This document shows positions 18,251 to 42,145 of a stretch of DNA of 64,000 bases, in pieces. Position numbers and translations under genes: made by a program. The notes under the pieces were generated by a model that ran no database searches, was not told the DNA's origin, and saw only the letters and a program-made list of their open reading frames with translations. Within the stretch, counting starts at the first letter, position 1, and each line of letters starts with the position of its first letter. Where the stretch lies: positions 32,001 to 96,000 of the forward strand of contig CAVPOM010000005.1 in NCBI GenBank assembly GCA_963707025.1. The letters are read 5' to 3'. Origin of the DNA: an uncultured Verrucomicrobiae bacterium. GTDB lineage: Bacteria; Verrucomicrobiota; Verrucomicrobiia; Limisphaerales; Palsa-1400.

Positions 18251-18494
18251 GTAGTTCTGGTCGCTGGAATCTGAGCCTTTTTCGGGCGGAGCCGCAAGTC
18301 AAAATTCATGGAGGGACAGAATCCCAGGCGGCCAGCCGCAACCAAAAATGAATTGACCACAGAGATGGCAAAGACCGCAAAGCATTCCTTGTCCAGGGGC
18401 CATGCAGGACCGGCAACAGCACGCCCTTGACCAAGGCCACCAACAACATTACCTTTTCCCCAGGTTTAAACCAGAAAGAGAAAGCGCCAAATAT

Positions 18495-18842
18495 ATGAAT
18501 GAACAAACACAAGAAATGAGCCATGACATGGGCCAACTGGCCAAAGATGCGCAGGCGTTAATGACCGCCACGGCCGACGCCACCGGAGAAAAAGTCAAGG
18601 AAGCCCGCGGTCGTCTTGCTGCCGCCCTGGAACGCAGCAAGGAAATCTGTGGCCGCGTTCGCGAGAAAGCGGTCGCCGGCGCCAAGGCCGTGGACCAGGT
18701 CGTGCATGAGCATCCCTATCAAGCCATCGCCATCGGCGTCGGCCTCGGGGCGCTCATCGGTTATCTCCTTGGCCGCCGGAGTCTCCCGGGGCCGGGATTA
18801 ATCTCATTATGGAAGAACCCACTGCCAGCTTTGCCAGCCTGA
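18495..18842 (+). CDS. DUF883/ElaB/YqjD family membrane-anchored protein (true stop may be 18801)
   Basis: Helical Ala/Lys/Glu-rich body, VHEHPYQAIAIGVGLGALIGYLL C-terminal TM followed by RR. Confidence 0.85.
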   Translation: MNEQTQEMSHDMGQLAKDAQALMTATADATGEKVKEARGRLAAALERSKEICGRVREKAVAGAKAVDQVVHEHPYQAIAIGVGLGALIGYLLGRRSLPGPGLISLWKNPLPALPA

Positions 18843-19198
18843 CCACGGCCTCGAAGCAATTGGCGCAACGGCTGCTGACCATCGGAGAAAACCGGCTCGA
18901 ATTGTTGGCGGTGGAGGTGCAGGAGGAGCGCGAGCGTCTCCTCCATGCCTTCCTTCTGGCTCTGGGCGCGGCGGCCTTCGCTCTGCTCGCCGGGCTGGCG
19001 CTGACGGCTGCCATCGTGGTGTTGGGGTGGCCTTACTCCCATTTGGCCGTCCTCCTCGCCTTAACCGGTCTCTACGGCGCAGCCGGGATTTGGCTTTACC
19101 GGCGCCTCGCCGGATTGCTGCGGGACTGGCAGACCCTTTCCGAGTCGCTGGATCAACTCCGCAAGGACCGCGCATGTTTGGAAAAAATCCTCAGATGA
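18809..19198 (+). CDS. YqjE-like (phage holin family) membrane protein
   Basis: RLELLAVEVQEER, two TM helices, TLSESLDQLRKDR; located after the DUF883 gene as in yqjDEK. Confidence 0.8.
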   Translation: MEEPTASFASLTTASKQLAQRLLTIGENRLELLAVEVQEERERLLHAFLLALGAAAFALLAGLALTAAIVVLGWPYSHLAVLLALTGLYGAAGIWLYRRLAGLLRDWQTLSESLDQLRKDRACLEKILR

Positions 19199-19503
19199 AC
19201 GCGCTGCAAGCGCGCAAACAATTGTTGGTTGCGGAAAGCGAACTCAACCGCGCGCAACTGGTCCGGGACACGGCGGAGTTGACGGCGGGCGTTCGCACGC
19301 TGACCGACCGCGCCAAATCCTTCGCCTCGATCGGCTCGGCCGCCGCGGCACTGGTGTCAGCCCTGGCGGCCTTCCGGCGCGACAAGCCCGCGGACGCCGG
19401 CGCCAAGCCTTCCCGCCTGCGAACCATTCTCAAGGCGGCGGGCCTGGTCTCCGCGCTCTGGCGGGCGCTCCGTTCGCAGGGGCGCGATCAGGAAGACAAA
19501 TAG
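19195..19503 (+). CDS. YqjK-like protein
   Basis: LQARKQLLVAESELNRAQL N-terminus; ATGA overlap; third gene of the yqjDEK-like trio. Confidence 0.65.
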   Translation: MNALQARKQLLVAESELNRAQLVRDTAELTAGVRTLTDRAKSFASIGSAAAALVSALAAFRRDKPADAGAKPSRLRTILKAAGLVSALWRALRSQGRDQEDK

Positions 19504-19532
19504 AAGCCGGCCAGAAAGGCGGGCTTTTCTTG
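19503..19532 (+). terminator. Probable intrinsic terminator
   Basis: AAGCCGGCC-AGAAA-GGCGGGCTT stem followed by TTCTT directly after the stop codon, between convergent genes. Confidence 0.5.
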
Positions 19533-19545
19533 CGCGAAGGGCCAG

Positions 19546-20604
19546 TCAAAGTTTTACCGGCAATCCGGTTCGAATGGATTTTTCCTCGGCCTCGCAGATT
19601 TCCAGCGCGGTCACGGCGTCGCGCGCGGTGACGATGGCCGGGGGACGGTGTTTGGCCACGCATTCCATAAAGTAGCTGATTTCCGCGCCGTAACCGTCCG
19701 GTTCGTCGAAATGAAGGGAGCGCGCGGGTTGGCCCGGCTCACTGATTTGCGTGGCGTCCGGGCCGCGTGCGAAGTCGAAATCCAGGGTGGCGCGTTCGCA
19801 ATAAATGGTGAACTCCATGTTGAAGCCCGCCGCTTGCAGCCAGCTTCCCTCCGCCGAAACCGCCGGGCCGCCGGGATAAATATATTGCGTCACCACATGG
19901 ACGATCGAACCGGCCGCATCGGCCACGCCGGTGGAAAAGACAGCCTTGGGCCGGCCGCAAAGAAAGTGCGCGTAGTCGGTGTCGTGAATGTGCAAATCGA
20001 ACAAGGCTCCGCCCGAATGCGCCGCGCCAGCGCCGGCGCCCTGCCGGCTCCAGCCGGGCCTCTCCGACACGCGGCGGAAATGCGCGGCCAGCATTTTTCC
20101 GTAAGCGCCTTGTTGGACGGTTTGCCGGAGCCGGCTCCAGCCCGGCCAGAAGCGCATGCACATGGCGGGCATGAGAAAGCCCGGCGACGATTCCGCCACT
20201 TTCAGAACCGCCCGCGCCGCCGCGGCCGTGCCGGCCAGCGGCTTTTCGCAGAGAACATGTTTGCCGGCTTTGAGGGCGGCGATGGCCTGTTCGGCATGCC
20301 GCGGCGTCGGGGTGCAAAGGTCCACCAGATCCACTTCCGGGTCGGCGAGAATTTCTTCCAGTTTCCGAAACACTTTGACGCGCAGGCCCAGATTAACGCC
20401 GCCGGATTTTTTGATGTTCCCCGCCACGCCGGGCAGGACGCCGCGGACCGGCAGCCGGACGGGGTCGCACACCGAGACAATCCGCGCGGATGGAAGGTCC
20501 AAATAGGCGCGCAGATGGGTCACACCCATGAAGCCCAGGCCGACGACGGCGACGTTGACTTTGGCCGGCGCCTTGCAAGGCGATTTTCCAGAGGGTGCTG
20601 TCAT
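19546..20604 (-). CDS. Gfo/Idh/MocA family oxidoreductase (cytoplasmic)
   Basis: VAVVGLGFMG, HVLCEKPL, GGALFDLHIHD. Confidence 0.9.
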   Translation of the reverse strand: MTAPSGKSPCKAPAKVNVAVVGLGFMGVTHLRAYLDLPSARIVSVCDPVRLPVRGVLPGVAGNIKKSGGVNLGLRVKVFRKLEEILADPEVDLVDLCTPTPRHAEQAIAALKAGKHVLCEKPLAGTAAAARAVLKVAESSPGFLMPAMCMRFWPGWSRLRQTVQQGAYGKMLAAHFRRVSERPGWSRQGAGAGAAHSGGALFDLHIHDTDYAHFLCGRPKAVFSTGVADAAGSIVHVVTQYIYPGGPAVSAEGSWLQAAGFNMEFTIYCERATLDFDFARGPDATQISEPGQPARSLHFDEPDGYGAEISYFMECVAKHRPPAIVTARDAVTALEICEAEEKSIRTGLPVKL

Positions 20605-20617
20605 GACAAAATTCGCT

Positions 20618-21454
20618 TCAAGCAAAGTTCTCTTCAACCACTGCCCTGGCCGCGATGATGTCAGCAACGCGCCGTGTCCCGGCTTCGCGTTCGACGACCA
20701 AATTGCCTGCAAAGTTCAGTTGTTGGAGCGTTGCAAAAAAAGCGCGCCAATCCACCTCGCCGGCGCCGGCCGCCACTTCCTCACCCCATGTCCCGGGCAC
20801 TTTGGGGCGCGTGGCGTCCTTGATGTGAACCTGCCGGATCCACCGGGCCAGCACGGGCAACGCTGCAACCGGATCGCCCTGATTGTAAAGAATCATGTTC
20901 GCCGGATCGAAGTTCACTCCCAGGTTCGGACGGCGCAGCTTTTGCAGCAGCGCGGCCAGGGCGGGCGCCGTCTCCTGTCCGGTCTCCAAGCCGAGAGCAA
21001 TGTGGGCCGCGGCGAACAGGCCGGCCACTTCCGCCAGCCGCGGCAGCAGCCTGGCCTCAGGCGCGTCGGTGGCCTGGCTCGGAAGAAAGCCGGCGTGGAA
21101 CGTCACCAGTTTCAATCCCAGCCCCGCCGCCAGGCCAACGGTGGCCTTGATGATTTTGCGATTCTGCTCCCAGGTCGCGTCCGGCGCCAGGCCGCCGGTC
21201 AGACGGATGCTTTCCAGCGTTGCGTAATCTTCGCCAATACAGCCAAACATTCCCGAAACCAGGGTGATGTGGTTCCGGCGAAAAAGCGTTTCGGTCCGGC
21301 GCCAGATCCGCGGCGATTCGCGCAGCGGGTCCAGCGCGAGTTGAACGCGGCGGACACCGCAGGCCAGCAATTTGGCCACGAGGTCTTGGGGATCGGCCGG
21401 CTGCAAAGACCAACTGCACACGGCCAGACGTTCCGCCACAAGATGGTTGTTCAT
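20618..21454 (-). CDS. Sugar phosphate isomerase/epimerase (xylose-isomerase-like/AP-endonuclease-2 TIM barrel)
   Basis: LETGQE, NFDPANM, VHIKDA, GAGEVDW, VVERE metal-binding pattern. Confidence 0.85.
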   Translation of the reverse strand: MNNHLVAERLAVCSWSLQPADPQDLVAKLLACGVRRVQLALDPLRESPRIWRRTETLFRRNHITLVSGMFGCIGEDYATLESIRLTGGLAPDATWEQNRKIIKATVGLAAGLGLKLVTFHAGFLPSQATDAPEARLLPRLAEVAGLFAAAHIALGLETGQETAPALAALLQKLRRPNLGVNFDPANMILYNQGDPVAALPVLARWIRQVHIKDATRPKVPGTWGEEVAAGAGEVDWRAFFATLQQLNFAGNLVVEREAGTRRVADIIAARAVVEENFA

Positions 21455-24500: not shown

Positions 24501-24743
24501 CGCCGTGCCGCGCGGCGGCGCAAAGGGCTGCACCACGTCCATGATGATGACCCCGCCGATGCCCGCCCGCCGCATGGCTTCGAGGTCGGCGGTGATGCCG
24601 GCCTTGGTGACGTTGCCGTTGTTCCAAAACCAATAAACCCACGGCCGGGCCGAGACGGGCGGAGTGACGAATTGCGCGGCCAGGCCGCCGGCCAGCGCCG
24701 GCGCGGAACAAAGCGCCAGCATCAGAGCAATCAATAATTTCAT
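21543..24743 (-). CDS. Glycoside hydrolase family 106 (alpha-L-rhamnosidase-like), secreted
   Basis: PPVSARPWVYWFW, GITADLEAM, GWCGSSGPWITPE, GLECDKLS, HIDSWEVG, PMSEFW, AEAFT, VANLWPNRMIGD, SGLLGPV. Confidence 0.88.
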   Translation of the reverse strand: MKLLIALMLALCSAPALAGGLAAQFVTPPVSARPWVYWFWNNGNVTKAGITADLEAMRRAGIGGVIIMDVVQPFAPPRGTAAFMNAEWRELFRFAVAEARRLGLEINMTNGPGWCGSSGPWITPELSMQMLVWTNLAVAGPADFSAALPRPALPSRQRNDIPIQYADFYRDIAVLAIPDTTNRVVPREAVLDLTAKLDAGGHLNWRVPAGRWMIERVGHTTTGAGTRPTVLGGNGLECDKLSREGMDAQFAGMMGKLIAQAGPVDGQALVATHIDSWEVGGQNWTPKFRQEFLKRRGYDPIPFLPDVFNKVGGIANQGGRAPASHTIGDETTAARFRWDFEETLAELLAENYTGRLAELAHRHGMRLTLEGYDLPFGDEATYTARADEPMSEFWTQSSAAVTQLKARQMASVGHIYGRPVIGAEAFTSGDREQWKEHPATIKALGDYEFCEGINRFVIHRYAHQPYLDRAPGATMGPWGLHYERTQTWWEMSGAWHEYLARCQYLLRQGWFVADLCCLRPQLPDQTYFTPVPEAPAGYKYDECSAEALMARMSVKNGRLVLPGGMSYRLLVLPGKPALMTPALVRKIKQLVQAGATALGPPPTASPSLSDFPKGDGEVAKLAAELWGDCDGRTVTEHAFGKGRVIWGQPLDAVLGKLQTPADFSAGVKLNWIHRQAGDTQLYFVANQTAAAVQAQCHFRVKGLRPELWNPETGEISPLAVYEENTAGISVPLRLEASGSTFVVFRPQQQRFDPVASFTHDGQPALPLTKSPVIKIAKAAYGVPGDAPRTRDVQSKVQGLADRGELSFQVSKMAEGDDPAYGIVKTLVVEYTADQQPFKISGRDPDTIRLVAPVAAVSPAAELRCDAAGRLSIVASQPGHYELKTAQGRTLRAEIAAVPAPLEITGPWEVRFPPNWGAPDKITLDRLASLSDSTNAGVKYFSGTATYTKLFDWNPAPNNGGQKAAIQLDLGEVQVMAQVKLNGRDLGILWKPPFRVDIAGALQPGGNTLEIRVANLWPNRMIGDAALPVAQRFTWSSYEPFTKDSPLLKSGLLGPVTIQTAETITPR

Positions 24744-24818
24744 GTTCGTCTTTCTGAATGATGTGCGACGAGCCGGCCGCCGATGCAGCCCGCGCCGCCG
24801 TTGAGGAGAATCTTCATT

Positions 24819-25898
24819 TCAAAGACTCTCCACCAGCCGGTTCATGGCCGGTTCCTGCCGCTCGATGGACTCGACCAGTTTGAACTGGGTGCGGCAGCGG
24901 TCCAGGTTGTGGCCGTCGCGGTGGACCTTGAAATAGGTGTCGCCCGCCAGAAAATCGGTGAGGAAGCGCAGGCCAATCTCAAAGGTGATGAGCTTGCCGG
25001 AGAAGGGCAGGAGCTTCTTCTCGGCCGGCGTCAGGAATTCCGCCGCCGCGCTCCAGTAGCCGCGCGCCAGCGCCTCGAACATGGGCAACTGCAAGGTCAC
25101 TTTCGACAAATCGCGCTCGTCCTCCCGGGCCGGGCTGGTGGTGGTGCGCACCATGTCGCCAAAATCGTAGAGCGCCAGGCCGGGCATGACCGTATCCAGG
25201 TCAATCACGCAAATGCCCTCGCCCGTGGCGTCGTCGAGCAGGACGTTGTTGAACTTGGTGTCGTTGTGCGTCACGCGCTCCGGCAGTTTGGCATCGAGCA
25301 GGACACTGCAAATCGCCTTGCGGCGCAAGGCAAATTCAATTTCCGGCCGCGCCAGCCGGGCGCGGTTGACGGCGTCAGCCTCGATCGCCTTTTCCAGGGC
25401 GGCGAAGCGTTTGGGGGTGTGATGAAAATCAGGAATGGTGTCGTGCAGGCGCGGCAGGGGCAAATCGGCCAGCAGTTCTTGGAACCGGCCGAAGGCCTGG
25501 GCCGCGGCCAGCGCCTGCGCCGGATTTTCCACCGCGTCGTAGGCGCGCGCGGCCTCGATGAAAAGGTAGGCGCGCCAGTGGTTGTCCGCGTCGTCCCGGA
25601 AAAAGGCCGCGCCGGAGCGGGCCGGGATGAGGGTCAGGACGCGGCGGCTTGCGCCGGGTTCGCCCGCCACCTTGCCGCCCAGATGCGCCGTGACGCGCCG
25701 GACGTTTTCCATGAGTGCCACGGGCTGCCGGAAGATGTGGTGGTTGATGCGCTGAAGAATGTAGCGGACGCGCGCGCCGCCCGCCTGGAAAACGACGCAA
25801 TAGGTGTCGTTGATGTGACCGCTGCCGTAAGAGGCGGCCTCCAGAAACTGGCCGTGGATTTGGAACTGCCCGGCGATGGCGCGAAGGTCGTATTGCAT
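24819..25898 (-). CDS. Aminoglycoside-phosphotransferase-fold sugar kinase (N-acetylhexosamine 1-kinase NahK-like / AmgK-like)
   Basis: GSGHINDTY, YILQRIN, TIPDFHHTP, HNDTKFNN, IDLDTVMPG, YDFGD, RFLTDFLAGDTYF. Confidence 0.85.
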   Translation of the reverse strand: MQYDLRAIAGQFQIHGQFLEAASYGSGHINDTYCVVFQAGGARVRYILQRINHHIFRQPVALMENVRRVTAHLGGKVAGEPGASRRVLTLIPARSGAAFFRDDADNHWRAYLFIEAARAYDAVENPAQALAAAQAFGRFQELLADLPLPRLHDTIPDFHHTPKRFAALEKAIEADAVNRARLARPEIEFALRRKAICSVLLDAKLPERVTHNDTKFNNVLLDDATGEGICVIDLDTVMPGLALYDFGDMVRTTTSPAREDERDLSKVTLQLPMFEALARGYWSAAAEFLTPAEKKLLPFSGKLITFEIGLRFLTDFLAGDTYFKVHRDGHNLDRCRTQFKLVESIERQEPAMNRLVESL

Positions 25899-25915
25899 GT
25901 TCAGGTTCGGAATTT

Positions 25916-26710
25916 CTAGTTTTCCTTGAAGTGCTGCCACTCCGGTTCACTGTCAAATATCCAGCGGTAGTATTCGACCTCTTCCAGGTTGGCGGCGGCG
26001 GCCTCGTCCACCACCACGGTGCAATGGGCGTGGAGTTGCAGGGCCGAGGCGGTCACGCGGCTGGTGATGGGGCCTTCCACGGCCTGGGCGATTATCCCGG
26101 CCTTCTCCTGGCCGGTGGCCAGAAGAAGACACCGCCGGGATTCCAATATGGTGCCGACACCCATGGTGATGGCCCGGCGGGGCACCTGGCCCGCATCCCC
26201 GCCAAACATTCCGGCGTTCTGTTCCAGGGTGGAGCGCATCAGGGTCTTGTCGCGGGTGCGCGAGCGCAGGGCGGACATGGGTTCATTAAACCCGATGTGC
26301 CCGGCGCGGCCGATGCCCAGCAGTTGCAGATCAATGCCGCGGCATTCCACGATCCAGCGCTCGTAACGGAGACATTCCGCCCCCAGATCCGGGGCGGTCC
26401 CGTCGGGCAGATGGGTGTTCTTGAGGTCAATGTCCACCTTGGAAAACAGATGCCGGTTCATATATTGCCGATAGGAGGCAGGATGCTCCGGCGGCAGGCC
26501 GATATACTCATCCAGGTTGAAGGTTCGGCAGGCGGCAAAGCTCACCCCCTCTTCGCGGTGCAAACGCGCCAGATGCGCATAAACGGCTTCCATCGTCCGG
26601 CCCGTGGCCAGGCCCAAAACGAGATTGGGTTTGCGCCGAATCTCGCTGGCGATAACCCGGGCGACCAACAGGGCCGCGGCGGCGGCATCGGGTTGGAGAA
26701 TAACTTCCAT
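25916..26710 (-). CDS. nagB: Glucosamine-6-phosphate deaminase
   Basis: VLGLATGRT, FNLDEY, LQLLGIGRAGHIGFNEP, AITMGVGTI, ASALQLH. Confidence 0.95.
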   Translation of the reverse strand: MEVILQPDAAAAALLVARVIASEIRRKPNLVLGLATGRTMEAVYAHLARLHREEGVSFAACRTFNLDEYIGLPPEHPASYRQYMNRHLFSKVDIDLKNTHLPDGTAPDLGAECLRYERWIVECRGIDLQLLGIGRAGHIGFNEPMSALRSRTRDKTLMRSTLEQNAGMFGGDAGQVPRRAITMGVGTILESRRCLLLATGQEKAGIIAQAVEGPITSRVTASALQLHAHCTVVVDEAAAANLEEVEYYRWIFDSEPEWQHFKEN

Positions 26711-26711
26711 G

Positions 26712-27788
26712 TCAGGCCCCATACTCCCTGGCGTTGACTCCGGAGGAAACCAACACCTTGCGATCAGGGAGGGACTGCCTCAGGGCAGCGAGTTCGTCCA
26801 TGCCGGCGCCCAGCGGCAGCGCGATCTGCCCGCCGCAAGCCGCCGCTCGTTGCATGGCCAGCATGATTTCGGCGCCCTGGCAGGCGCTCTCGAACCGGCA
26901 CGGATGCGGTTTGGCATTGTCATCCAGCCAGTCGGCCATGTCTTGGATGTAGGGCGGCATGTCCAGGTCGTAATTCATCGCCCCCTCGCCGGTCTGATAT
27001 CCCCCGCTCTTGGTAACGGCCCGCCAGCCGCCGTTGGTCAAAACTTCGGCGAATCCTTCCGTGCCCTGCGCGCCCATCCGGCATTTGCCCCACCACTTGG
27101 CCACTTCCGGCTGGTCGGGGGCGCCGGCGCCGCATTCATAAATCCCGCGCACGCCGTTGGCGTATTGCACAAATCCGGCAATGTAGTCGGGGGAGGGATG
27201 AACGTCGTTGAGCTTGCCGCGTCCGGCCGCCGAAGCCATCACCCATTGCGCCTCCGCTTCGCCATTGAACCAGCGGGTGTAGTCAATGAGGTGTGACAAC
27301 ATGTGCGTCATCCAGCCGGTCGCGTTGCCGTAAACGGTGTGGATGCGCCCCAGCGCCCCGCTGGCAATGATCTCCCTGACCTTGCGATAATGGGCGCCAT
27401 AGCGATGCTGGTGGCTGACCACCGCCTTGACTCCGGCTTTCTGGATCAGGTCGCGCACGGCGAAGAGTTCGCGGCTCGTCAGGGCCACGGGTTTTTCAAA
27501 GGCGATGAGCTTGACCCCCGCGCTCACGGCAGCCTGGATCATCGGGGTGCGCAGGTTCGGCAGGGTGCAGAAGCAGAAAATGTCCGGCTTCACCTCCGCC
27601 GCCAGGGCGGCCGCGTCCGTCCCGGTCTTGACGCCGCCGCCGAGTTTGGCGGCGGCCGCCTCCAGCCGGGCGGCGTCAATGTCGCACAAGGCGGCAATGC
27701 GAAAGCGGGGATTGGCCTTGAAGCCTGTGGCGTGATGAAGACCGCGTTTGCCGATTCCGACAATCATGGTTGAATACTGCTTGGTCAT
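26712..27788 (-). CDS. Gfo/Idh/MocA family oxidoreductase
   Basis: IVGIGKRG, FEKPVA, HQHRYG; translationally coupled within the operon. Confidence 0.85.
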   Translation of the reverse strand: MTKQYSTMIVGIGKRGLHHATGFKANPRFRIAALCDIDAARLEAAAAKLGGGVKTGTDAAALAAEVKPDIFCFCTLPNLRTPMIQAAVSAGVKLIAFEKPVALTSRELFAVRDLIQKAGVKAVVSHQHRYGAHYRKVREIIASGALGRIHTVYGNATGWMTHMLSHLIDYTRWFNGEAEAQWVMASAAGRGKLNDVHPSPDYIAGFVQYANGVRGIYECGAGAPDQPEVAKWWGKCRMGAQGTEGFAEVLTNGGWRAVTKSGGYQTGEGAMNYDLDMPPYIQDMADWLDDNAKPHPCRFESACQGAEIMLAMQRAAACGGQIALPLGAGMDELAALRQSLPDRKVLVSSGVNAREYGA

Positions 27789-27823
27789 GCGTGTACCGGC
27801 TAATGGCGCCGTATTGAAAAAAA

Positions 27824-28957
27824 CTAGCTGTTGGCCTTGTCCCATTCCAGGCACTTCTGCGTCACGTAATCCACCTCCCCGGCGGTCAGCTCGCCGTACA
27901 TGGGCAGGCTGATGCAAGTGGCGGAAATGCGTTCGGCGTTGGCGACCGTGCCGGCGATGCGGGCGCTCTTGCCCCACGGATAGCCGGCCTGCTGGTGAAT
28001 GGCGATGGAATAGTGCGTTTTGGCGTCAATACCATTTTTAACCAGCCAATCCACGAAGGCGTCGCGCTTGCCGGCGTCCTTGGCTTCGATGACATACAAA
28101 TGCCAGACATGCCGGTAACCGGGCTGGTGATACGGCAACGTAAAGGTTGCGGCTTGCTTGAGGCCGGCCGTGTAGCGCGCGGCCCACTTGATGCGGTTGT
28201 CGTTCCACTCGTGGATATGTTTGAGCTTGGCGCTTAATATGCCGGCATGAATGTCGTCCAGGCGGCTGTTGTAACCAAAGCTGTGAACGTTGCGGGCCGG
28301 GGAACCGTGGTTGCGCAGCAGCCGGGCGGTGCTGTTGATTTTGTCATTGTTGGTGACAATCGCGCCGCTGTCGCCGAACGTGCCCAGGTTCTTCTGGACG
28401 ATGAAGCTGATGGTGATCGCGTCGCTCAATTCGCCCACCTTGAACGTGTCGCCGGCGGCGTCAATGCCCTGGGCGTTGTCTTCGACGAGGAAAAGCTGGT
28501 GTTTGACTGCAATCTTTTTAATGGCGGGCATGTCGGCGCATTGTCCATAAAGGTGAACCGGGATGATGGCCTTGGTCTTGGGCGTGATGGCCGCCTCGAT
28601 TTTCGCCGGATCAATGCACTTGGTCTTCGGCTCGCAATCCACGAACACCGCCGTCGCCCCCGTGATCCAGATCGCTTCCGCCGTCGCGAAAAAGGTGTTC
28701 GGATGGGTGATGACTTCGTCGCCGGGGCCGATGCCCAGCCCCATCAGCGCCAGCCAGATGGCGTCGGTGCCGTTGCCCACGCCGATGGCGTATTTCATGC
28801 CGTGGAACCCGGCCAGCTCCTTTTCGAACTGCTTGTTCATCGGCCCCTGCACATATTCGCCGCTCTCCAGCACCCGCTTGATGTTCGCGTCAATCTCCGC
28901 CTGGATATTGTGGTACTGGCGGACGTGACCGTAAAATCTGACTTTCATTTGACTCAT
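27824..28957 (-). CDS. DegT/DnrJ/EryC1/StrS family PLP-dependent sugar aminotransferase
   Basis: VGNGTDA, NTFFATAEAI, PVHLYG, EDNAQ, SFIVQKNLG (PLP lysine), GYNSRLD, SLPM. Confidence 0.93.
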   Translation of the reverse strand: MSQMKVRFYGHVRQYHNIQAEIDANIKRVLESGEYVQGPMNKQFEKELAGFHGMKYAIGVGNGTDAIWLALMGLGIGPGDEVITHPNTFFATAEAIWITGATAVFVDCEPKTKCIDPAKIEAAITPKTKAIIPVHLYGQCADMPAIKKIAVKHQLFLVEDNAQGIDAAGDTFKVGELSDAITISFIVQKNLGTFGDSGAIVTNNDKINSTARLLRNHGSPARNVHSFGYNSRLDDIHAGILSAKLKHIHEWNDNRIKWAARYTAGLKQAATFTLPYHQPGYRHVWHLYVIEAKDAGKRDAFVDWLVKNGIDAKTHYSIAIHQQAGYPWGKSARIAGTVANAERISATCISLPMYGELTAGEVDYVTQKCLEWDKANS

Positions 28958-29102
28958 TTTTGTTTCCTCTATCTTTTGGTTTGATTCGTTTTCATGGCCC
29001 GCGCTTTTCGCGCAGGCAAAGAATGTCTTTCGTCGGGTTCTTCAGGGCGCCAGCCTGCGGACTGGCCGCAGGGTGGTCTATAGCTGTCATTTGCCCCACC
29101 GC

Positions 29103-29957
29103 TCATCTGCCCAACCGACTGAACAATTTCTTGCGCACATCGCTTTCGAGCGCCTTGATGAAGGTGACGACATACTCAACCAGGTCGCGCGAATTATCCA
29201 CCACCAAAGGCGTCAAATCCATGCCGAAAATGAGCTGGTTGGCCTTGTCCGTGGCGTGCGACTCGAAGAAGGTCGCGTTGGCTGCGCGCCGGCCCAGCGT
29301 CGCCAGATCGTAGCGTTTGCCGCCGGCAATCTGCGAATCAAAAACGCCGTTGAGCGCCGCCGCCAGGTGGTCGTGCCCGCTCACGTCCATCACCACTTTG
29401 GCCGCGTCCGGCAGCCAGTCGAGATTGCGCCAGACCTCGCAGCCGATGACTTTTTTCGGGCGCTGTTCGCCCGGCAGTTCGCGCATCGCCTGCAAGGCCG
29501 CGACGACCACTCCGAGGTGCGTGTCGTGCTTGTCCGCCAGATTGTGCGTATAGACCACTGCCGGGCGCGTCACCGCCAGAATTTCCTTTAAATCATTTTT
29601 GAGGGCCGTGTCGCTGGCGCTTTTGACCGCGCTGCTCGGATAATCCAGTTGGAACATCACGCCGTATTGGCCGACGATGGCGGCGCTGTTCTGTTCCGCG
29701 CGGCGGACGGCCATCATCTGCGCGTCGGAAAATTTTTCATACGCGCCCGTGCGGGAGCTGCCCGAACCGTTCGTGCAAGTCACGCCGCCAAACCATTTTT
29801 TATCGTTGGCGTAACATTGCAAAATGCCGTGAAACGCCATGAACTCCAGATCGTCCTGATGCGCGCCGATGCCCAGATGGGTGATGCGCCGGAGCGCGTC
29901 CGCGACCGGTTTTCCGTCCGGCACAAAAACCCGCGCCGTTGCTTGATGCAGCTTCAT
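29103..29957 (-). CDS. PIG-L/LmbE family de-N-acetylase
   Basis: GAHQDDLE zinc motif, RRAEQ, THNLADKHDTH, FDSQIAGGKRYD. Confidence 0.88.
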   Translation of the reverse strand: MKLHQATARVFVPDGKPVADALRRITHLGIGAHQDDLEFMAFHGILQCYANDKKWFGGVTCTNGSGSSRTGAYEKFSDAQMMAVRRAEQNSAAIVGQYGVMFQLDYPSSAVKSASDTALKNDLKEILAVTRPAVVYTHNLADKHDTHLGVVVAALQAMRELPGEQRPKKVIGCEVWRNLDWLPDAAKVVMDVSGHDHLAAALNGVFDSQIAGGKRYDLATLGRRAANATFFESHATDKANQLIFGMDLTPLVVDNSRDLVEYVVTFIKALESDVRKKLFSRLGR

Positions 29958-29961
29958 AATT

Positions 29962-31335
29962 CTATTTCTTTAATTCCGGCAGGCTGGCCGCCGCCACCGC
30001 CTGGCCAACGCGCCGTGATGCTTCGTCCGGCACATGCAGCGCAATTTTTTCCGCCACCGCCGGGAACTCTTTGTTCAAAACCTGCCGCGCCTTGTCGAGC
30101 ACAATGTCGCCGCCCTGCCCGGTGGTGACGCGGCCCAGAATGAGGGCATGTTGGAAATCGTAAAAGTCCGCGTAGTGGGCCAGGGCGCAGCCGAGATAGA
30201 CACCGATGGTCTCGTAAACTTTCGCGGCGCGGGGATCCCCCTTCGCCAGCAGCGCCTGCACTTCCTGCAGACGTTCGGGCAGGCCCATTCTTTCCGGCAG
30301 CGCTATTTTGGCGGCGGGCAGAAGTTTGTTGACCGCCTGCTGCGAAAAATAAAGCGCGCCCACGCCCCGGTCGCCGGACCATTCATCGGCGGCGGCGCCG
30401 GGATTGTAATCCACCGGCGCGAAGGCCAGCTCGTTCAGCCAGCCAAGGATGCGGCCCTGCCGGTCCATGAAGCCCGCCGCCTGGCTCGAACCCATGGCGA
30501 TGCCCAGCAGGCCTTTTTTGCGGAGCGAAAGCGCGCCCGCCAGCGCGGTCACGTCGCCGTCGTTCATCACCATGACCGGGACGTTCCATTCGCGCTGGAT
30601 GCGTTTGAAAAGGCCCGCCGCCTTTGGAAAATCTTTTTTCGGAATGGCGCGCAGGAGCGAGGCCACGCGGATTTCATTGTCCACAATCACGCCGGCCGAA
30701 CTGCCGCCGATGGCGTCCACGCGCGGCAGATGGGCGGCGGCGCGATGGAGCGCGGCGGAAAGGTGATGATAATGATAATCCGAATTTGCCTGGCTCTTCG
30801 GGTCCCAAGGCGCTTCCTCGGTAAAAATGGCCGCGCCCTCCACGACCGCCGAAACCTTGTAATCGCTGGCCCCGAGGTCAAAGCCGATGCGGCAGCCCTT
30901 GAGATGGCCGCCCGCCGCCACTTCCATCTCGCGGTTGGCGGGAACTTTTTCCGGCACGGTAACGACCACCTGGAATTTTTTGCCGTAAGCCGCGCCCATC
31001 AAGTCACAGTCGAATTTCCTTGCGCCGGTTGGCGAGTAGGTTTTGCGGATGAATGCGCCGGCGGCCTTCGGCCCGCCGATGAATACTTTCCAGCCGCCGC
31101 GGGCCCACAACAGAAATTTCACGGTGCGCTCGACATGCTGGAGCGTGGCGGGGCCGGCGTCAGTAAGCACGCAAGTTTCATAACGCGATACCAGGCCGCG
31201 TTCGCGTTCCAGACCGATGACCAGCGGCACGGCCCGGCCGGTTTTTTTCGCGGCGGCGAGATAATGGCGATGGAAGAGCACTGCCGGCTGGAATCCAGGG
31301 TCGAGCGGTGGAAGGAAGCTTGCTTTGATGTCCAT
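29962..31335 (-). CDS. ROK-family sugar kinase with extended N-terminus
   Basis: IGFDLGASD, NDGDVTALAG, GIAMGSSQAAG, WLNELAFAP, YFSQQAV. Confidence 0.85.
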   Translation of the reverse strand: MDIKASFLPPLDPGFQPAVLFHRHYLAAAKKTGRAVPLVIGLERERGLVSRYETCVLTDAGPATLQHVERTVKFLLWARGGWKVFIGGPKAAGAFIRKTYSPTGARKFDCDLMGAAYGKKFQVVVTVPEKVPANREMEVAAGGHLKGCRIGFDLGASDYKVSAVVEGAAIFTEEAPWDPKSQANSDYHYHHLSAALHRAAAHLPRVDAIGGSSAGVIVDNEIRVASLLRAIPKKDFPKAAGLFKRIQREWNVPVMVMNDGDVTALAGALSLRKKGLLGIAMGSSQAAGFMDRQGRILGWLNELAFAPVDYNPGAAADEWSGDRGVGALYFSQQAVNKLLPAAKIALPERMGLPERLQEVQALLAKGDPRAAKVYETIGVYLGCALAHYADFYDFQHALILGRVTTGQGGDIVLDKARQVLNKEFPAVAEKIALHVPDEASRRVGQAVAAASLPELKK

Positions 31336-31362
31336 GGCTGCTTGGAGTGGAACGGTGCCGCG

Positions 31363-33240
31363 TTATTTTCCTTCGAAATGCGCCTCGATTTCCTCGAGCG
31401 TCTTGCCTTTGGTCTCCGGCAGGAAGAACGCGGCGGTGATGAAATAAACGACGGTGCAGCCGGCGAAGATAAAGAACATGGCGGCGTAGCCGTGCTTGCC
31501 GACCATGGGCAGGAAGACGGCGGCGATGGTGGTGGCGACGGCTTGATTAATGAGCAGAGCGATGCTCATGCCGTTGGAGCGGATGCGGGTGGGCATCAAC
31601 TCGGAGAGGGCCAGCCAGACGCACACCCCGGGGCCGACGGCGAAGAAGGCCACGAAGACAAAGGAGCAGATGGCGACAAGCCAGCCGTTCTGCGCGCTGG
31701 GCACGGGGGTGATGAGGGCGTTCTCAATACGCAATGGCGCGGCGCGCGATTTTTCCAGGTTGGCAAACGGGTTCTTGAAGAAAGCTTCCACAGAGGTGGT
31801 CGGCAGGCTGGCATTGCGGCTGATGGAAACTTCCGCGCCGGCATCCGTGGACCGCACCACGGCGGAGGCGGAGGTGAAATCACCGCAGGAATAAATGACA
31901 CTGATGGTGACCGGCTGGCCGGTGTCGGCTTTGCCGCCAGCGCCGGAGCCGGCCAGCAATTCAGCGGCCTTGGCCCCGTCAAATACGAACTTAACGATCT
32001 GATCCTTGACGGGGACGGTGGTGCCATCCGACAGGACTTTCTCGCTGTCCACTTCTTTTACCAGGGCTTGCAGGGCGTCCTTGACGTCCACCCGCAATTT
32101 TTCGGTTTTGTTGAAAATCAAGCCGACGCAGATAAGAGAGACGATGATGCCGGCGCTGCCGAGGGAGAGCAGGAACTTGCGGCCCTTCCGGTCCACCAAG
32201 GCGATGGCGCCGATGGTCATAAGAAAGTTGACGGCGGTGAAGATGACGTAGCCCAGGTGCGCCTGTTGGTCGTTCAAGCCGGCCTGAATGAGGATGGTGG
32301 CGTTGTAGCCGATGATGGAGTTGATGCCGGTGGCCTGATTGCACGCCAGAATGATGCAGGCCATCACGAACGGAATGACGTATTTGCGGCGCAAAAGCGA
32401 TTCCCTGGCCTTGGCGCCGGGCGAAGCAACCCTGGCCTTTTCCGCAGCGGCCGTTTCTTCCATTTCCTTCAATTCCATGGCGGCCTGTTCCGGTGTGCGG
32501 GAACGGAGCAGGGCGGCGCGCGCGGCTTCGACCTCGCCGCGCCGATAGAACCAGCGCGGCGATTCGGCGACCAGCATACTGCCCAGGACAAAGAGGATTC
32601 CCGGCGGCAAGGAAACCCAGAAAATGCCGCGCCAGGCGGTGTCTTTGAAGGCATACAACCTGGCAAGATCACCGAGCTTGGCGATGTCGTCCACCTTGAG
32701 GCTGAAAAGATAGCCAATCACGGCCGCCGTCACGATGCCCAGCGTGAGCAGCCACTGGAAAACCGCCGTGCCCTTGCCGCGGTTGGCCGCGCCGAGACAC
32801 TCCGCCAGATATAACGGCACCACCACGCCAATCAGTCCGGCGCTCATCCCCTGCAATAATCGGCCTATGACCAGCGCATGAAAGCCATGCGCCAGCGCAA
32901 TCATCGGGATGCTGATCACAAAGAAAATGCCGCTCAACACCATCAGCTTCTTGCGCCCCATCAAATCGGCCAGCATGCCCGCGAACAAGGTCGAAATCAC
33001 GCTGCCCAGCAGCACGGCCGCCACGATGATGGAAAGCTGGCCGGCGTTGACGATCTGACCCGTGGCCGCGTCCTTGAAGGTGGCCTGCACATACGGCAGC
33101 GCCACGGCGATGATGCCGACGTCAATGCCGTAGAGCAGGCCGCCCAGGCCGGCGACCAGCAGGAGAAAACGGTTGTAGCCGGCCTGTTTGCTATTGGCGG
33201 TTGCCGAGTCGGTTGCGTTCATGTTGGTGGCCACATCCAT
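31363..33240 (-). CDS. MFS sugar porter with a large loop insertion
   Basis: GGLLYGID, DLMGRK, PLYLAE, AESPRW, NQATGINSI, VDRKGRK, GPGVCVW..LSELMP, LPETKGKTLEEI. Confidence 0.93.
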   Translation of the reverse strand: MDVATNMNATDSATANSKQAGYNRFLLLVAGLGGLLYGIDVGIIAVALPYVQATFKDAATGQIVNAGQLSIIVAAVLLGSVISTLFAGMLADLMGRKKLMVLSGIFFVISIPMIALAHGFHALVIGRLLQGMSAGLIGVVVPLYLAECLGAANRGKGTAVFQWLLTLGIVTAAVIGYLFSLKVDDIAKLGDLARLYAFKDTAWRGIFWVSLPPGILFVLGSMLVAESPRWFYRRGEVEAARAALLRSRTPEQAAMELKEMEETAAAEKARVASPGAKARESLLRRKYVIPFVMACIILACNQATGINSIIGYNATILIQAGLNDQQAHLGYVIFTAVNFLMTIGAIALVDRKGRKFLLSLGSAGIIVSLICVGLIFNKTEKLRVDVKDALQALVKEVDSEKVLSDGTTVPVKDQIVKFVFDGAKAAELLAGSGAGGKADTGQPVTISVIYSCGDFTSASAVVRSTDAGAEVSISRNASLPTTSVEAFFKNPFANLEKSRAAPLRIENALITPVPSAQNGWLVAICSFVFVAFFAVGPGVCVWLALSELMPTRIRSNGMSIALLINQAVATTIAAVFLPMVGKHGYAAMFFIFAGCTVVYFITAAFFLPETKGKTLEEIEAHFEGK

Positions 33241-34853: not shown

Positions 34854-34950
34854 CCAAACCGAATGAAACCTTTTTCAAGTGCGTCCGGTATTCCACCGAA
34901 AACAGCGAGGAACCAGAAAAGGCTTGAAAAGTGCTCCGAACCCCTTAGGC

Positions 34951-37377
34951 ATGTCCCAGTCGCTTTTGCACCCGACTGTGAAACAGAATGCATTCCAACC
35001 GAGCGCCGGTGAGCGCGGCATAACGCGATCTATCGCAGGGATGGCCCTGGCCGTCGCTTTGCTGACGGCGGCGGGCCGGGCGCCGGCAGCGGACAGCAAC
35101 GCCGTAACCACCCTCTCGGGACTGGCCGGCCAGATTGACGCGCACCTCGCCGAGCCGAAGTTTTCCGCCGCGACTTGGGCCATCAAAGTCGTCTCGCTCG
35201 ACTCCGGTCGCACGCTCTACGAAAATCACGCCGACCGGCTGATGAGTCCCGCCTCCAACAGCAAGCTCTACACCAGCGCCGTCGTGCTGGACCGCTTCGG
35301 CGGGGATTACCAGATCGCCACCCCGATTTTTGGGACGGCGCCGGTGGACGCCTCCGGCACACTGCCCGGCGACCTGATCATTTCCGGGCGCGGCGATCCG
35401 AGTTGGAACGCCCGGCGTTTGGGCACCAATTTTTGGGACATCTTCGAGCCTTTTGTGGCCGTGCTGACCAATGCCGGCCTCCGCAGAATCAGCGGCGACA
35501 TCGTGGGCGACGCGACCTATTTTCGCGGACCGCCAACTGGTTCGAGTTGGGAGATTGACGATTTGAGCGGGGGCGAGGCGGGTGAGATTTCCGCCCTCAC
35601 GCTCAACGACAATCTCACGCAAATCCGCGTCACGCCCGGCGCGGCGCCGGACGCGCCGTGTGTCATCGCGCCCTTGCATCCCGGCACCGGGCTGGTCTTC
35701 AGCAATCAAACCGTCACGGTCCCCGCCGGAAGACCCGGCCGCGTCCAAGCCTATCGCCCCCTCCATGGCGAGACCGTTTTCCTCATGGGTCAATTGCCGG
35801 TCGGGGCGGCCAGCGAGATGATTGATTTGGTGGTGCCGGTGCCGGCGGGATGGTTTGCCGCCGCGCTGAAGGTGGCGCTGGCGCATCACGGCATTATGGT
35901 TGACGGCCGGTCGCGCGGCGCGGCCTGGCCGCAGACGCCTTGGTGGAATCCCGCCGCGCTGGTCAAGATCGGCCAAGTGCTTTCGCCGCCGATGCGCGAG
36001 GTGGTGCGCCTGTTCATGAAACCATCGCAAAATCTCGAAGCCGACACCTTGCTGGCCGACGCCGGTGAATTCACGCGCCTTTCCAACGCGCCCCCGCGGC
36101 TGACTTCCGAAGACGCCGGCCTGGCCGCCCTGCGCGAATTTCTCGCGGCCGCCGGCGTGCCCGTTGGAGACGTGAAGTTCGATGAAGGCTCCGGCCTGTC
36201 GCGCAACAATCTGACCTCCGCCGACGCCACCGTGGCGCTGCTGCTGCACATGGCCCGGCATCGCGAGGCGCAGGCTTTCATGGATTCGCTGCCCGTCGCC
36301 GGAGTGGACGGCACGCTGCGCCGCCGTTTTATCGGCACCGTCGCCGCCGGCAATGTCCGCGCCAAAACCGGCACGCTCAAATGGTCGGCGGCGGTTTCGG
36401 GCTACGTGACCAACGCCGCCGGCGAGCGCCTGGTCTTCAGCATCATGCTCAATCGTTTCGCGGGCACGGCTGGCGACACCGCCCACCAGGAAATTGATCC
36501 GCTGGTGCTGATGCTGGCCAAATTTGCCGGGCGCACCGATGTTCCGCTGGCAACGCCCTACGAGCCGCTGGGCAAACTGCTCGTGCGCCAACTCGCCTCC
36601 GCGCCCTTCCCGCATCCGGCGCGCGCCGAGGGACACCGCTATCACGACGAGTTCTTCTCCGCCAAGGAACATTATTCCGACCGCACCGTGGCCTTCTTCA
36701 TTCCCAAGCACTTTCGCGAATCGGACAAGATTGATTTCGTCGTCCATTTTCACGGCTGGAACAACACGGTGGCCGGCGCGCTGGAGCAGTACCAATTGAT
36801 CGGGCAGTTTTGCGCCAGCGGAAAGAACGCCGTTTTGATCGTGCCGGAAGGCCCGCACAACGCGCCGGATTCTTTCGGTGGAAAACTGGAAGACACCAAC
36901 GGCTTCGCAAATTTCATGGCCGAAGCCGCCGCTAATTTGCGCGCCTCGGGCCTGCTGGCCCGGACCAATTTTGAAATCGGCAACCTCATCTTGTCCGGCC
37001 ACAGCGGCGGTTACCATGTCATGGCCGCGATTTTGGATCACGGCGGCCTGTCCGCGAAAATCAAGGAAGTCTGGCTCTTCGACGCCCTCTATGGCAACAC
37101 CGAGAATTTTGTGGCGTGGCAAAAAAACGAAAACGGCCGTCTCCTTGACATCTACACCGACCACGGCGGCACCAAAGACGAGACCGAGAAACTGATGGCG
37201 TCGTTCAAGAGCAGCGGCGTCCCCTTTTTGGCGGAGGAGGATTCGGCGGCAGCGGAGGAGGCTCTGCGGACCAACAAGCTGGTGTTTCTGCACACCGGCA
37301 TGGTCCACGATGACGTGGTGGCAAAACGGGCGACCTTCGCCCAGTTCCTCAAAACCAGCAGCCTGGAAAACAAATGA
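34951..37377 (+). CDS. dacB: D-Ala-D-Ala carboxypeptidase/endopeptidase (PBP4, peptidase S13) fused to a C-terminal alpha/beta-hydrolase domain
   Basis: PASNSK (SxxK), GRGDPS, PSQNL (SxN), EGSGLSRNN, LPVAGVDGTL, AKTGT; then HFHGWNN, LSGHSGG, LFDALYG in the same frame. The start could also be 35041. Confidence 0.88.
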   Translation: MSQSLLHPTVKQNAFQPSAGERGITRSIAGMALAVALLTAAGRAPAADSNAVTTLSGLAGQIDAHLAEPKFSAATWAIKVVSLDSGRTLYENHADRLMSPASNSKLYTSAVVLDRFGGDYQIATPIFGTAPVDASGTLPGDLIISGRGDPSWNARRLGTNFWDIFEPFVAVLTNAGLRRISGDIVGDATYFRGPPTGSSWEIDDLSGGEAGEISALTLNDNLTQIRVTPGAAPDAPCVIAPLHPGTGLVFSNQTVTVPAGRPGRVQAYRPLHGETVFLMGQLPVGAASEMIDLVVPVPAGWFAAALKVALAHHGIMVDGRSRGAAWPQTPWWNPAALVKIGQVLSPPMREVVRLFMKPSQNLEADTLLADAGEFTRLSNAPPRLTSEDAGLAALREFLAAAGVPVGDVKFDEGSGLSRNNLTSADATVALLLHMARHREAQAFMDSLPVAGVDGTLRRRFIGTVAAGNVRAKTGTLKWSAAVSGYVTNAAGERLVFSIMLNRFAGTAGDTAHQEIDPLVLMLAKFAGRTDVPLATPYEPLGKLLVRQLASAPFPHPARAEGHRYHDEFFSAKEHYSDRTVAFFIPKHFRESDKIDFVVHFHGWNNTVAGALEQYQLIGQFCASGKNAVLIVPEGPHNAPDSFGGKLEDTNGFANFMAEAAANLRASGLLARTNFEIGNLILSGHSGGYHVMAAILDHGGLSAKIKEVWLFDALYGNTENFVAWQKNENGRLLDIYTDHGGTKDETEKLMASFKSSGVPFLAEEDSAAAEEALRTNKLVFLHTGMVHDDVVAKRATFAQFLKTSSLENK

Positions 37378-37529
37378 GCGCACGGCTTACCGAGAGATGT
37401 TGTCAGGCTTCCTTTGGCCTGAATGCTTCAGCATGGCTCAGTGTATCCTCCCAATTGCCATCACCCCATTGGCCACGTTGCGAGTTTCAAAACTAATCGT
37501 CTCGGGTGTTACCTCTTGAATCCAAACCG

Positions 37530-38123
37530 ATGACCCCCCACAACGATTTTCTCCGCTTCTTCGATGTTTTGAAAAACAACCCGGCCCTGTTCACTGCGCG
37601 CAAGGAGGACGTGTACCGTCAAGGGCTGCCGCGCTGGATGTCGCTTCCGTACCGGTTCACCGGGGTCGGATCGGTTTTTACCGGTGCGCGCTGGAGCGTG
37701 AAGGAATTGATGCCAACCGTTTACGCGAGCACGGAACTGAGAACTCTCCTCGCCGAGGCTTACTACAAGGCCCGGCGTTACGGTTGGAGGCCTGCCCAGT
37801 TCCAACCGCAGTTGACGGTTCTTATGCACTGGGAACTTCAGAGTGTGGTGGATCTGACAAACGCCACCACCCGCAGAGCACTGAAAGTGACAAAAAACGC
37901 GATTGTGAGTTGTGACTGGTCTGCAGAACAGGCGAGCGGCACGGAGCCGGTGACGCAAGCCATTGCGCGGGCGGCGTTCGAGAATCTGGCTGAGGGCCTG
38001 GTTGTCCCATCAGCACGCCGCAAAGGCGGTGTGAACCTTGTGTATTATCCGACCCATCGGCGCGACGGCACGGTGATCCAGACGCTGAACGAGGCGAACA
38101 TTCCGGTTGTGCATGGATTATGA
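37530..38123 (+). CDS. RES-domain toxin (NAD+ phosphorylase-like)
   Basis: GARWS (R), YAS...LAEAY (E), VVDLT, TQAIARAA, GLVVPSAR (S), NLVYY. Confidence 0.85.
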   Translation: MTPHNDFLRFFDVLKNNPALFTARKEDVYRQGLPRWMSLPYRFTGVGSVFTGARWSVKELMPTVYASTELRTLLAEAYYKARRYGWRPAQFQPQLTVLMHWELQSVVDLTNATTRRALKVTKNAIVSCDWSAEQASGTEPVTQAIARAAFENLAEGLVVPSARRKGGVNLVYYPTHRRDGTVIQTLNEANIPVVHGL

Positions 38124-38196
38124 ACGATGAAAACATGCAGATCTGCCTGCATATCTGCTGGACAGGCTGTGCAGAATGGCGTAGAGTATTCCCGTT

Positions 38197-38835
38197 ATGA
38201 ACGACAAAACGGCGGGCAAAAATAAAGGTAAAGCCAAGTCTGTGCAGGTTCTCACAATTGGCGATCAGCAAGGTGGCCTGAAGCCAGTTCTTTCTGTCAA
38301 ACGCGGGAAACAATATTCTTTCGTGCCAAAGGCCCCTGCGGTTCATGGGAAACAGAAGGCGGCTTACACCTCGTATAGTCCTTCGGCTATACAAATCCAC
38401 GACGCCGGAATTGGAGCGGAATTCGCTGCTGCCCCCCCCACCGGATTGGAAACCACGCCGCTGGAAGACGAAACGGGACTGGCTGATCAACTGGTCTCAG
38501 AGGTTGCTCGTGACAGTGCCGACGTGAGGGCATTGTGCGAAACTTATAAACTCAAGCGGGAAGAGTTGGGACGGTTGACCGGCTTTTCACTGCGGGCGCT
38601 GGCCGAATGGGCTGCGGGCAAGTTGCCGAGCCAGCCAGCCCGGAGGCGTTTGCAGGAAGTGCGACGGCTGTTGGATGCGCTGGCTCAGATTGTGAAGCCC
38701 GAAAGCATTCCCCAATGGCTTCATCAACGCAACCCGGCGTTTGACCGGTTAAGTCCTCTACAGATAATCGAACTGGGCGAAATTGACCGCCTCTGGGCGA
38801 TGGTGCATGACCTGGCCTCCGGCCAGCCAGACTGA
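38197..38835 (+). CDS. Xre/MbcA/ParS-type antitoxin (HTH + DUF2384-like C-terminus)
   Basis: LKREELGRLTGFSLRALAEW HTH; WLHQRNPAFDRLSPLQII C-terminal motif; adjacent to the RES gene. Confidence 0.8.
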   Translation: MNDKTAGKNKGKAKSVQVLTIGDQQGGLKPVLSVKRGKQYSFVPKAPAVHGKQKAAYTSYSPSAIQIHDAGIGAEFAAAPPTGLETTPLEDETGLADQLVSEVARDSADVRALCETYKLKREELGRLTGFSLRALAEWAAGKLPSQPARRRLQEVRRLLDALAQIVKPESIPQWLHQRNPAFDRLSPLQIIELGEIDRLWAMVHDLASGQPD

Positions 38836-40931: not shown

Positions 40932-40942
40932 GGAACAATGCC

Positions 40943-42130: not shown

Positions 42131-42145
42131 TGTCGCGACCATCCT

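Follow-up and report, generated by a model that had tools for sequence, protein, structure and literature searches.

DegT aminotransferases paired with Gfo/Idh/MocA oxidoreductases are annotated by default as parts of lipopolysaccharide (LPS) or antibiotic biosynthesis; what, then, does such a pair do among genes for amino-sugar breakdown? The question is posed by a stretch of 64,000 nucleotides (here, the window) from an uncultured Verrucomicrobiae bacterium (GenBank assembly GCA_963707025.1, contig CAVPOM010000005.1, positions 32,001 to 96,000), in which seven genes follow one another in the order sugar porter, ROK-family kinase, PIG-L deacetylase, DegT, Gfo/Idh/MocA (Gfo), nagB, and NahK-like kinase. 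The original prediction took these genes for one dedicated pathway that consumes 3-amino or diamino sugars. All seven open reading frames were found, on the minus strand and in that order, and their span holds no nucleotidyltransferase, glycosyltransferase, flippase, or nagA gene, as had been noted. The conserved unit is smaller than was claimed. It consists of one DegT subfamily and one Gfo subfamily, and the pair is an accessory add-on to an operon for N-acetylglucosamine (GlcNAc). This compact subfamily, which appears to behave as a catabolic add-on, lies among amino-sugar breakdown genes in many uncultured soil and water bacteria, suggesting a route for a 3-amino sugar such as diaminoglucose.

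We favor, at somewhat less than an even chance, the reading that the locus is a GlcNAc-use operon with an accessory C3-deamination pair acting on 2,3-diamino-2,3-dideoxyglucose-6-phosphate (GlcN3N-6-P). A two-gene unit would thus be plugged into an ordinary operon of porter, ROK kinase, PIG-L in place of NagA, NagB, and NahK. DegT would move the C3 amine of GlcN3N-6-P to a 2-oxo acid, Gfo would reduce the 3-keto product with NADH to glucosamine-6-phosphate (GlcN-6-P), and NagB would convert GlcN-6-P to fructose-6-phosphate and ammonia. If the product is the NagB substrate, the input would need an amine at C2, a free C6, and a second amine at C3, which points to GlcN3N-6-P; we propose the conversion of 2,3-diaminoglucose-6-phosphate to GlcN-6-P tentatively. 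The substrate would carry no nucleotide, and the general kinase and deacetylase would have to accept the 3-amino sugar. With NAD+, the oxidation of a sugar C3 hydroxyl runs uphill, which makes the opposite reaction the easier one, and the pair probably runs in a catabolic or salvage direction.

The enzyme families and their chemistry are known, and what our analysis suggests to be new is the apparent catabolic use beside nagB. In the literature within reach, which excluded most subscription papers, we found neither such use of a DegT/Gfo pair nor catabolism of kanosamine or GlcN3N, nor a PIG-L protein replacing NagA. Possibly, although this is more doubtful, the locus represents the first bacterial route consuming 2,3-diaminoglucose, with GnnA/GnnB-type chemistry reversed on a sugar phosphate by two dedicated subfamilies and with two PIG-L types replacing NagA. 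If GlcN3N is the substrate, the route would explain the recycling, in soils and waters, of an envelope sugar bound through an amide, and the two enzymes would serve as a C3 transaminase and reductase, independent of nucleotides, with which 3-amino sugars could be made or assayed.

The DegT/Gfo pair is conserved as a unit and linked to nagB

A scan of GTDB with the DegT protein returned 274 relatives, and loci were analyzed for the best 80 (70 to 85% identical; 40 Verrucomicrobiota, 17 Acidobacteriota, 9 Lentisphaerota, 6 Kiritimatiellota, and 8 others). A metagenome collection was searched with a Gfo alignment, and the best 80 of 532 loci were used. Among GTDB loci with at least 600 bp of downstream sequence, Gfo (26712-27788 in the window, minus strand) directly follows DegT (27824-28957, minus strand) in 72 of 76; DegT is directly upstream of Gfo in 55 of 67 metagenome loci. 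Where enough sequence was available, nagB lay directly downstream of Gfo, within 700 bp, in 26/62 GTDB and 26/56 metagenome loci. The linkage of nagB to the pair recurs in both collections and in various gene orders and is far above chance.

The flanks of the 80 GTDB loci contained nagB 36 times, ROK 23 times, PIG-L type 1 (PIG-L1) 15 times, PIG-L type 2 (PIG-L2) 10 times, NahK 8 times, GalE twice, and the porter only 3 times; 45 loci had nagB, ROK, PIG-L, or NahK within 10 kb. Depending on the locus, nagB stands after the pair, before it, or divergent from it, and ROK and PIG-L are upstream or convergent, a variability that argues for selection on proximity. In one locus (L118), Gfo keeps nagB although DegT has moved away. 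Different, unrelated deacetylases take the same place by the pair, namely, PIG-L1 and PIG-L2 in the GTDB loci just counted and a divergent NagA-like gene in 7/80 metagenome loci. By taxonomic label, amino-sugar linkage was seen in 29/40 Verrucomicrobiota, 6/9 Lentisphaerota, and 6/6 Kiritimatiellota loci, all three being PVC groups.

These counts divide the original prediction. Its proposed neighborhood check on ROK, PIG-L, DegT, Gfo, and nagB bore out conservation of the pair with nagB, but the five occur together in only 15/80 loci. The idea of seven genes forming one dedicated pathway had to be given up: the full set was found in 2/80 loci, and ROK, PIG-L, and nagB often occur where the pair is absent. 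The opposite outcome that it had named, homologs sitting mostly in LPS or O-antigen clusters with the linkage lost, is not what the loci look like, as the pair is tied to nagB, deacetylases, and N-acetylhexosamine (HexNAc) kinases.

The pair is dispensable. The DegT subfamily was present in 1 of 150 genomes sampled from the phylum at a completeness of at least 90% (G001 to G150), and the pair was present in 12 of 30 genomes of the family and 0 of 5 of the genus; Gfo was found in 1 of 200 further Acidobacteriota genomes and, at >70% identity, in 1 of 200 further Planctomycetota genomes. ROK was found in a single one of the 5 same-genus genomes (64 to 92% complete), as was NagB. Together with the grouping of the window DegT with copies from Lentisphaerota, Planctomycetota, and other Verrucomicrobiota, this suggests that the operon as a whole has been gained or lost patchily. 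More distant Gfo relatives (31 to 40% identical) in Planctomycetota had no DegT or nagB in the fetched flanks. Among neighbors of the pair seen at single loci (L229, L231, L059, and L018) were an ammonium transporter with P-II and a lactate permease; a transketolase was seen at two loci.

DegT is a C3-type aminotransferase with an altered residue triad

The DegT protein matches PF01041 with 365.7 bits, has the fold-type-I pyridoxal phosphate fold, and carries the catalytic Lys189 in 80/80 GTDB loci. By both sequence and fold, its closest solved relatives include an archaeal sugar transaminase and the C3 enzymes QdtB, DesV, and WbpE, with C4 enzymes ranking lower; template modeling scores were 0.88 to 0.92 for the top-ranked DesV, WbpE, and QdtB chains, and identity to the WbpB/WbpE, WlbA/WlbE, QdtB, and DesV group was 38 to 41%. 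A KNLG motif and Tyr316 are kept in all 80 proteins. The C3 motif, 15 residues around the lysine with glycine at position 9, was read by eye against its published description; Tyr316 would correspond to the conserved pyranose-site tyrosine of the preprint cited below. The motif, Tyr316, and the nearest solved enzymes thus agree with the C3-type activity originally predicted.

The residues before the lysine set the subfamily apart. Ile186 and Gln188 are invariant in 80/80 members, and the residue between them is Ile, Ala, Val, or Ser (an Ile-Ile-Gln type). Among 138 other DegT representatives, this triad is Tyr or Phe in 135, Pro in 131, and Gly, Ala, Ser, or Thr in 134. The same Tyr/Phe-Pro-small triad of nucleoside diphosphate (NDP)-sugar enzymes is present in the solved enzymes aligned and is lost in 80/80 subfamily members; its replacement by Ile-Ile-Gln hints at a substrate without a nucleotide. 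WbpB/WbpE, WlbA/WlbE, QdtB, and DesV, although among the closest in structure, differ from the window protein in this triad and in their setting, the pair having no O-antigen or glycosylation context. It does not stand in an O-antigen cluster of the WbpB/WbpE kind; the genome's own such cluster is elsewhere, a separate Gfo and DegT pair lying inside a polysaccharide cluster. In a quick tree (50 rows, one long row being unsure), the subfamily formed its own clade on a long supported branch, and there is a gap in identity, members being mostly 57 to 84% identical and other full-length DegT proteins at most 47%. The active-site positions Asn161, Lys113, and Lys313 are new.

Judged from the end points of the alignment, Gln188 aligns to Tyr246 of NtdA, a residue that is reported in a preprint to fill the nucleotide pocket of this sugar-phosphate enzyme (bioRxiv 2021.09.04.459008). 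The main rival to GlcN3N-6-P catabolism is breakdown or detoxification of kanosamine: kanosamine would enter the cell, broad HexNAc machinery would phosphorylate it, the pair would turn kanosamine-6-phosphate into glucose-6-phosphate as NtdA and NtdC in reverse, and NagB would be a co-regulated neighbor. We consider this unlikely, and biosynthetic readings less likely still. The C3-type DegT and the altered position before the lysine speak for it, as does the action of NtdA, KabA, and NtdC on glucose-6-phosphate and kanosamine-6-phosphate (PMC8788734; for NtdA/NtdC, also PMC6522883). NtdC/NtdA and KabC/KabA share with the pair the two families, the action on a sugar 6-phosphate that is proposed for the pair, and a bulky residue before the lysine. 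They differ in that NtdA ranks below QdtB, DesV, and WbpE in the DegT comparison (about 33% identity; 377 residues in the window protein versus about 440), in that no phosphatase partner was seen in the neighbors scanned, which were not all neighbors, and in that the window genes around the pair are catabolic.

Biosynthesis on a sugar phosphate, as by NtdCAB/KabCAB or RifKLMN, would yield kanosamine or GlcN3N-6-P for export or for a secondary product and draws on the same enzyme families. A kanosamine kinase and a transketolase take part in the Rif route as well (PMC8788734), and the transketolase found near DegT at two loci would fit it. The Rif enzymes of the kanosamine stage of 3-amino-5-hydroxybenzoate (AHBA) synthesis likewise place an aminotransferase, an oxidoreductase, and a sugar kinase in one cluster. 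However, RifK scored 136 bits against 271 to 278 bits for the best C3-type matches, no RifM, RifH, RifG, or RifJ recurred in neighbor clustering or scans, and the ROK gene is phylum-wide. Pfam scans of 58, 112, and 59 neighboring proteins, which were not exhaustive (223 further candidates had been listed), also revealed no recurring HAD phosphatase, 3,4-dideoxy-4-amino-D-arabino-heptulosonate 7-phosphate (aminoDAHP) or 5-deoxy-5-amino-3-dehydroquinate (aminoDHQ) enzyme, or exporter. An adjacent NagB would drain a GlcN-6-P substrate, and we regard this biosynthetic route as very improbable.

Fold searches assign Gfo to no single substrate class

Gfo has a confident Gfo/Idh/MocA fold and keeps the EKP motif, a His-x3-His motif, several invariant basic residues, and an acidic residue typical of NAD use. 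It is at most 23% identical to the solved members listed by two fold searches, which single out no substrate class, the top Z values being tied. WlbA is among these tied matches (Z, 32.3; root mean square deviation, 3.0; 312 aligned residues), a GnnA structure ranks 26th at 19% identity, and no NtdC or KabC entry is among the matches listed by sequence and fold searches. Names of Atlas structure matches were automatic family names only.

None of the solved structures is close to Gfo, and inositol, glycoside, and NDP-sugar dehydrogenases reach similar scores with it, which is compatible with deamination and reduction, by the pair, of another amine, such as an aminocyclitol or a different amino-hexose. 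The same holds for the new active-site positions of DegT. Yet inositol-pathway genes do not recur among the scanned neighbors, DegT keeps the C3 hexose motif, and the genomic link is to nagB; we judge another amine unlikely.

ROK, PIG-L, and NagB belong to a general GlcNAc route

ROK, PIG-L, and NagB form a general GlcNAc route. The ROK gene (29962-31335, minus strand) encodes a 457-residue form with a long N-terminal part that barely exceeds the PF00480 cutoff (24.4 versus 22.9 bits) and has almost no similarity to solved structures (one weak PDB match; E value, 0.0015). It occurs in 91/150 phylum genomes, nearly always in single copy, and adjoins NagA, PIG-L1, PIG-L2, NagB, or NahK in different lineages. 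It is the probable HexNAc 6-kinase of the phylum; an Akkermansia ROK protein is treated as a glucokinase in one report (PMC7459334).

The PIG-L1 gene (29103-29957, minus strand) has the metal-binding HxDD motif and a later conserved His, stands beside ROK in many genomes, and had no solved relative by sequence search. PIG-L1 is present in 36/150 phylum genomes, PIG-L2 (18 to 25% identical to PIG-L1) in 19/150, and NagA above cutoff in 77/150. The three together account for 132/150 genomes and never co-occur. An independent distribution would give about 18, 10, and 5 overlaps, although related genomes are not independent; a NagA-like gene below the cutoff is carried by 14 of the 55 PIG-L genomes. 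This mutual exclusion strongly supports the earlier suggestion that PIG-L may replace NagA, and PIG-L1 and PIG-L2 are probably a double nonorthologous replacement. A function is thereby proposed for two unassigned deacetylase groups, filling the NagA step in 55/150 phylum genomes. With ROK, PIG-L, and nagB common without the pair, PIG-L need not be a special C3 de-N-acylase.

NagB (25916-26710, minus strand) is an ordinary member of its family (TIGR00502, 271.7 versus a cutoff of 236.9 bits) and keeps LDEY and GHIGFNEP, which we take to be its catalytic motifs. A specialized NagB clade was considered and rejected, since the ROK-linked NagB of a genome without DegT (L101) nests among the pair-linked proteins. 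The operon follows the kinase, deacetylase, and deaminase logic of NagK-NagA-NagB, from which it differs in having PIG-L where NagA is expected and DegT/Gfo inserted before nagB. The NahK-like N-acetylhexosamine 1-kinase (24819-25898, minus strand; PF01636) matches Bifidobacterium NahK structures over residues 11 to 356 (E value, 4e-79), and the sugar porter (31363-33240, minus strand), of the major facilitator superfamily (MFS), scores above the TIGR00879 cutoff. A second sugar porter (50891-52687, minus strand) is 65% identical to it and has the same insertion.

A divergent nagA-like gene does exist elsewhere in the genome (165 bits versus a cutoff of 225.65), with a second nagB-like gene and a gene for a GlcNAc 2-epimerase as neighbors. 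That locus (L085; contig C5, 570000-586000) also encodes an MFS protein, two GDSL esterases, and a ROK protein, and its second NagB type is near a DegT/Gfo pair in 12 loci.

MurQ is present in the genome, and a muramic acid route in which the pair replaces MurQ was rejected: MurQ was found in 27 of 31 family genomes, among them this one and 11 of 12 others with DegT. Throughout the family, MurQ matches lie in open frames of more than 600 residues (L232 to L235; contig C13, position 56361, in this genome), suggesting a fusion.

Lipid A genes and the source of the 3-amino sugar

Many bacteria have lipid A with a GlcN3N backbone, a product of GnnA and GnnB (PMC8036547). The genome has a gnnA-like gene beside lpxB (contig C18, 638630-641500), and a gnnA-like match was found in 101/150 phylum genomes, although one genus lacked it in all 14 of its genomes. 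Lipid A built on diaminoglucose may be common in the phylum, and GlcN3N is probably abundant in the surrounding communities and in this cell.

GnnA and GnnB, which convert UDP-GlcNAc to its 3-amino counterpart UDP-GlcNAc3N for lipid A, are a Gfo/Idh/MocA protein and a C3 DegT performing the same exchange of C3-OH and C3-NH2 on a glucosamine skeleton. The pair is not orthologous to them; it stands by nagB, apart from the genome's own gnnA-like gene, and would work in reverse without a nucleotide. Its location differs as well, lpxB or lpxI being near the pair in 1/80 GTDB loci (L062) and 0/80 metagenome loci. Genes of the glycosyltransferase, UDP-sugar dehydrogenase, or acetyltransferase type were near 3/80 GTDB loci (L054, L061, and L062), and a heptosyltransferase gene was in the flank of 3/80 metagenome loci.

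On another reading, the pair would be an alternative enzyme set of the GnnA/GnnB or WbpB/WbpE kind, producing a UDP-3-amino sugar, with its genes housed among those for amino-sugar salvage (NahK, nucleotidyltransferase, and GalE); we consider this improbable. L062, the 8, 2, and 2 of 80 loci with NahK, GalE, and nucleotidyltransferase neighbors, and the tied top rank of WlbA for Gfo point toward it, as do 6 of 15 DegT genomes tested outside the family that gave no gnnA match (the other 9 did). It is at odds with the rarity of lpx genes by the pair and with the lost NDP-sugar triad, and in the Gfo fold search WlbA does not stand out from glycoside and inositol dehydrogenases. Within the family, where gnnA is found in 27/30 genomes, it accompanies DegT in 11 of 12 genomes and is also present in 16 of 18 without DegT. 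With no association with gnnA there, DegT as an essential GnnB and the pair as a pure self-recycling device are both disfavored; because the pair does not track gnnA, scavenging fits better than self-recycling.

Several observations weigh against GlcN3N-6-P catabolism. Neighbor scans, which were not exhaustive, found no recurring amidase, glycosidase, or transporter that would free GlcN3N from lipid A or import it. That no conserved enzyme for removing the amide-linked fatty acids was found weakens the proposal, as do the ordinary NagB and the unlinked Acidobacteriota copies. Because NagB is an ordinary enzyme, it may stand near the pair for shared regulation without catalyzing the next step. 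An amino-sugar gene was within the fetched flanks of 0/17 Acidobacteriota loci (one further Acidobacteriota genome, outside these 17, has nagB beside the pair), and two genomes with DegT gave no Gfo match. L062 puts the pair behind lpxI-gnnA-lpxB and a glycosyltransferase gene; in four pair-bearing genomes, lpxB follows lpxI immediately and gnnA is missing between them, which allows a reading as replacement biosynthesis. The Coxiella structure 3uwc, labeled a nucleotide-sugar aminotransferase, has Leu at the Gln188 position, and the nucleotide-pocket argument, a hint, rests on sequence position with no liganded structure. Finally, the best-80 loci lean toward the query, and related genomes are not independent.

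The stand-alone Acidobacteriota pairs would be explained by kanosamine breakdown. That route, however, would not need NagB, and it gives no account of nagB as the most constant neighbor (36 loci versus 23 with the kinase) or of the repeated recruitment of deacetylases.

Operon layout and surroundings in the window

From porter to NahK, the intergenic gaps are 27, 4, 145, 35, 1, and 17 bp, the 145-bp gap lying between PIG-L and DegT. Promoter and terminator scans gave signals near the level of shuffled sequence. Between NahK and a glycoside hydrolase family 106 gene is a 25-codon remnant of a GalE-like epimerase gene (24740-24817, minus strand); a whole GalE-like gene stands 3' of NahK in relatives (L001, L011, and L135), of which the window keeps the start.

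Farther downstream, a minus-strand run (10508-21454) of a sulfatase, two Gfo/Idh/MocA genes, a nucleoside-type MFS gene, and a xylose isomerase-like barrel gene resembles a glycoside 3-oxidation cluster. On the other side, 39644-45928 holds what, by their motifs, look like genes for a serine hydrolase, a NagX/HGSNAT-like membrane protein, and a NamZ/DUF1343-like muramidase, the last divided between two frames near 40100. Two peptidase C39-like genes and an S13 carboxypeptidase gene (34879-37377) add to what looks like a wider region for cell wall scavenging. Stretches of lower guanine-plus-cytosine content (37506-38835 and 47495-49555) presumably encode, by their motifs, a RES-domain toxin-antitoxin pair, an HNH nuclease, and a BRO-like protein.

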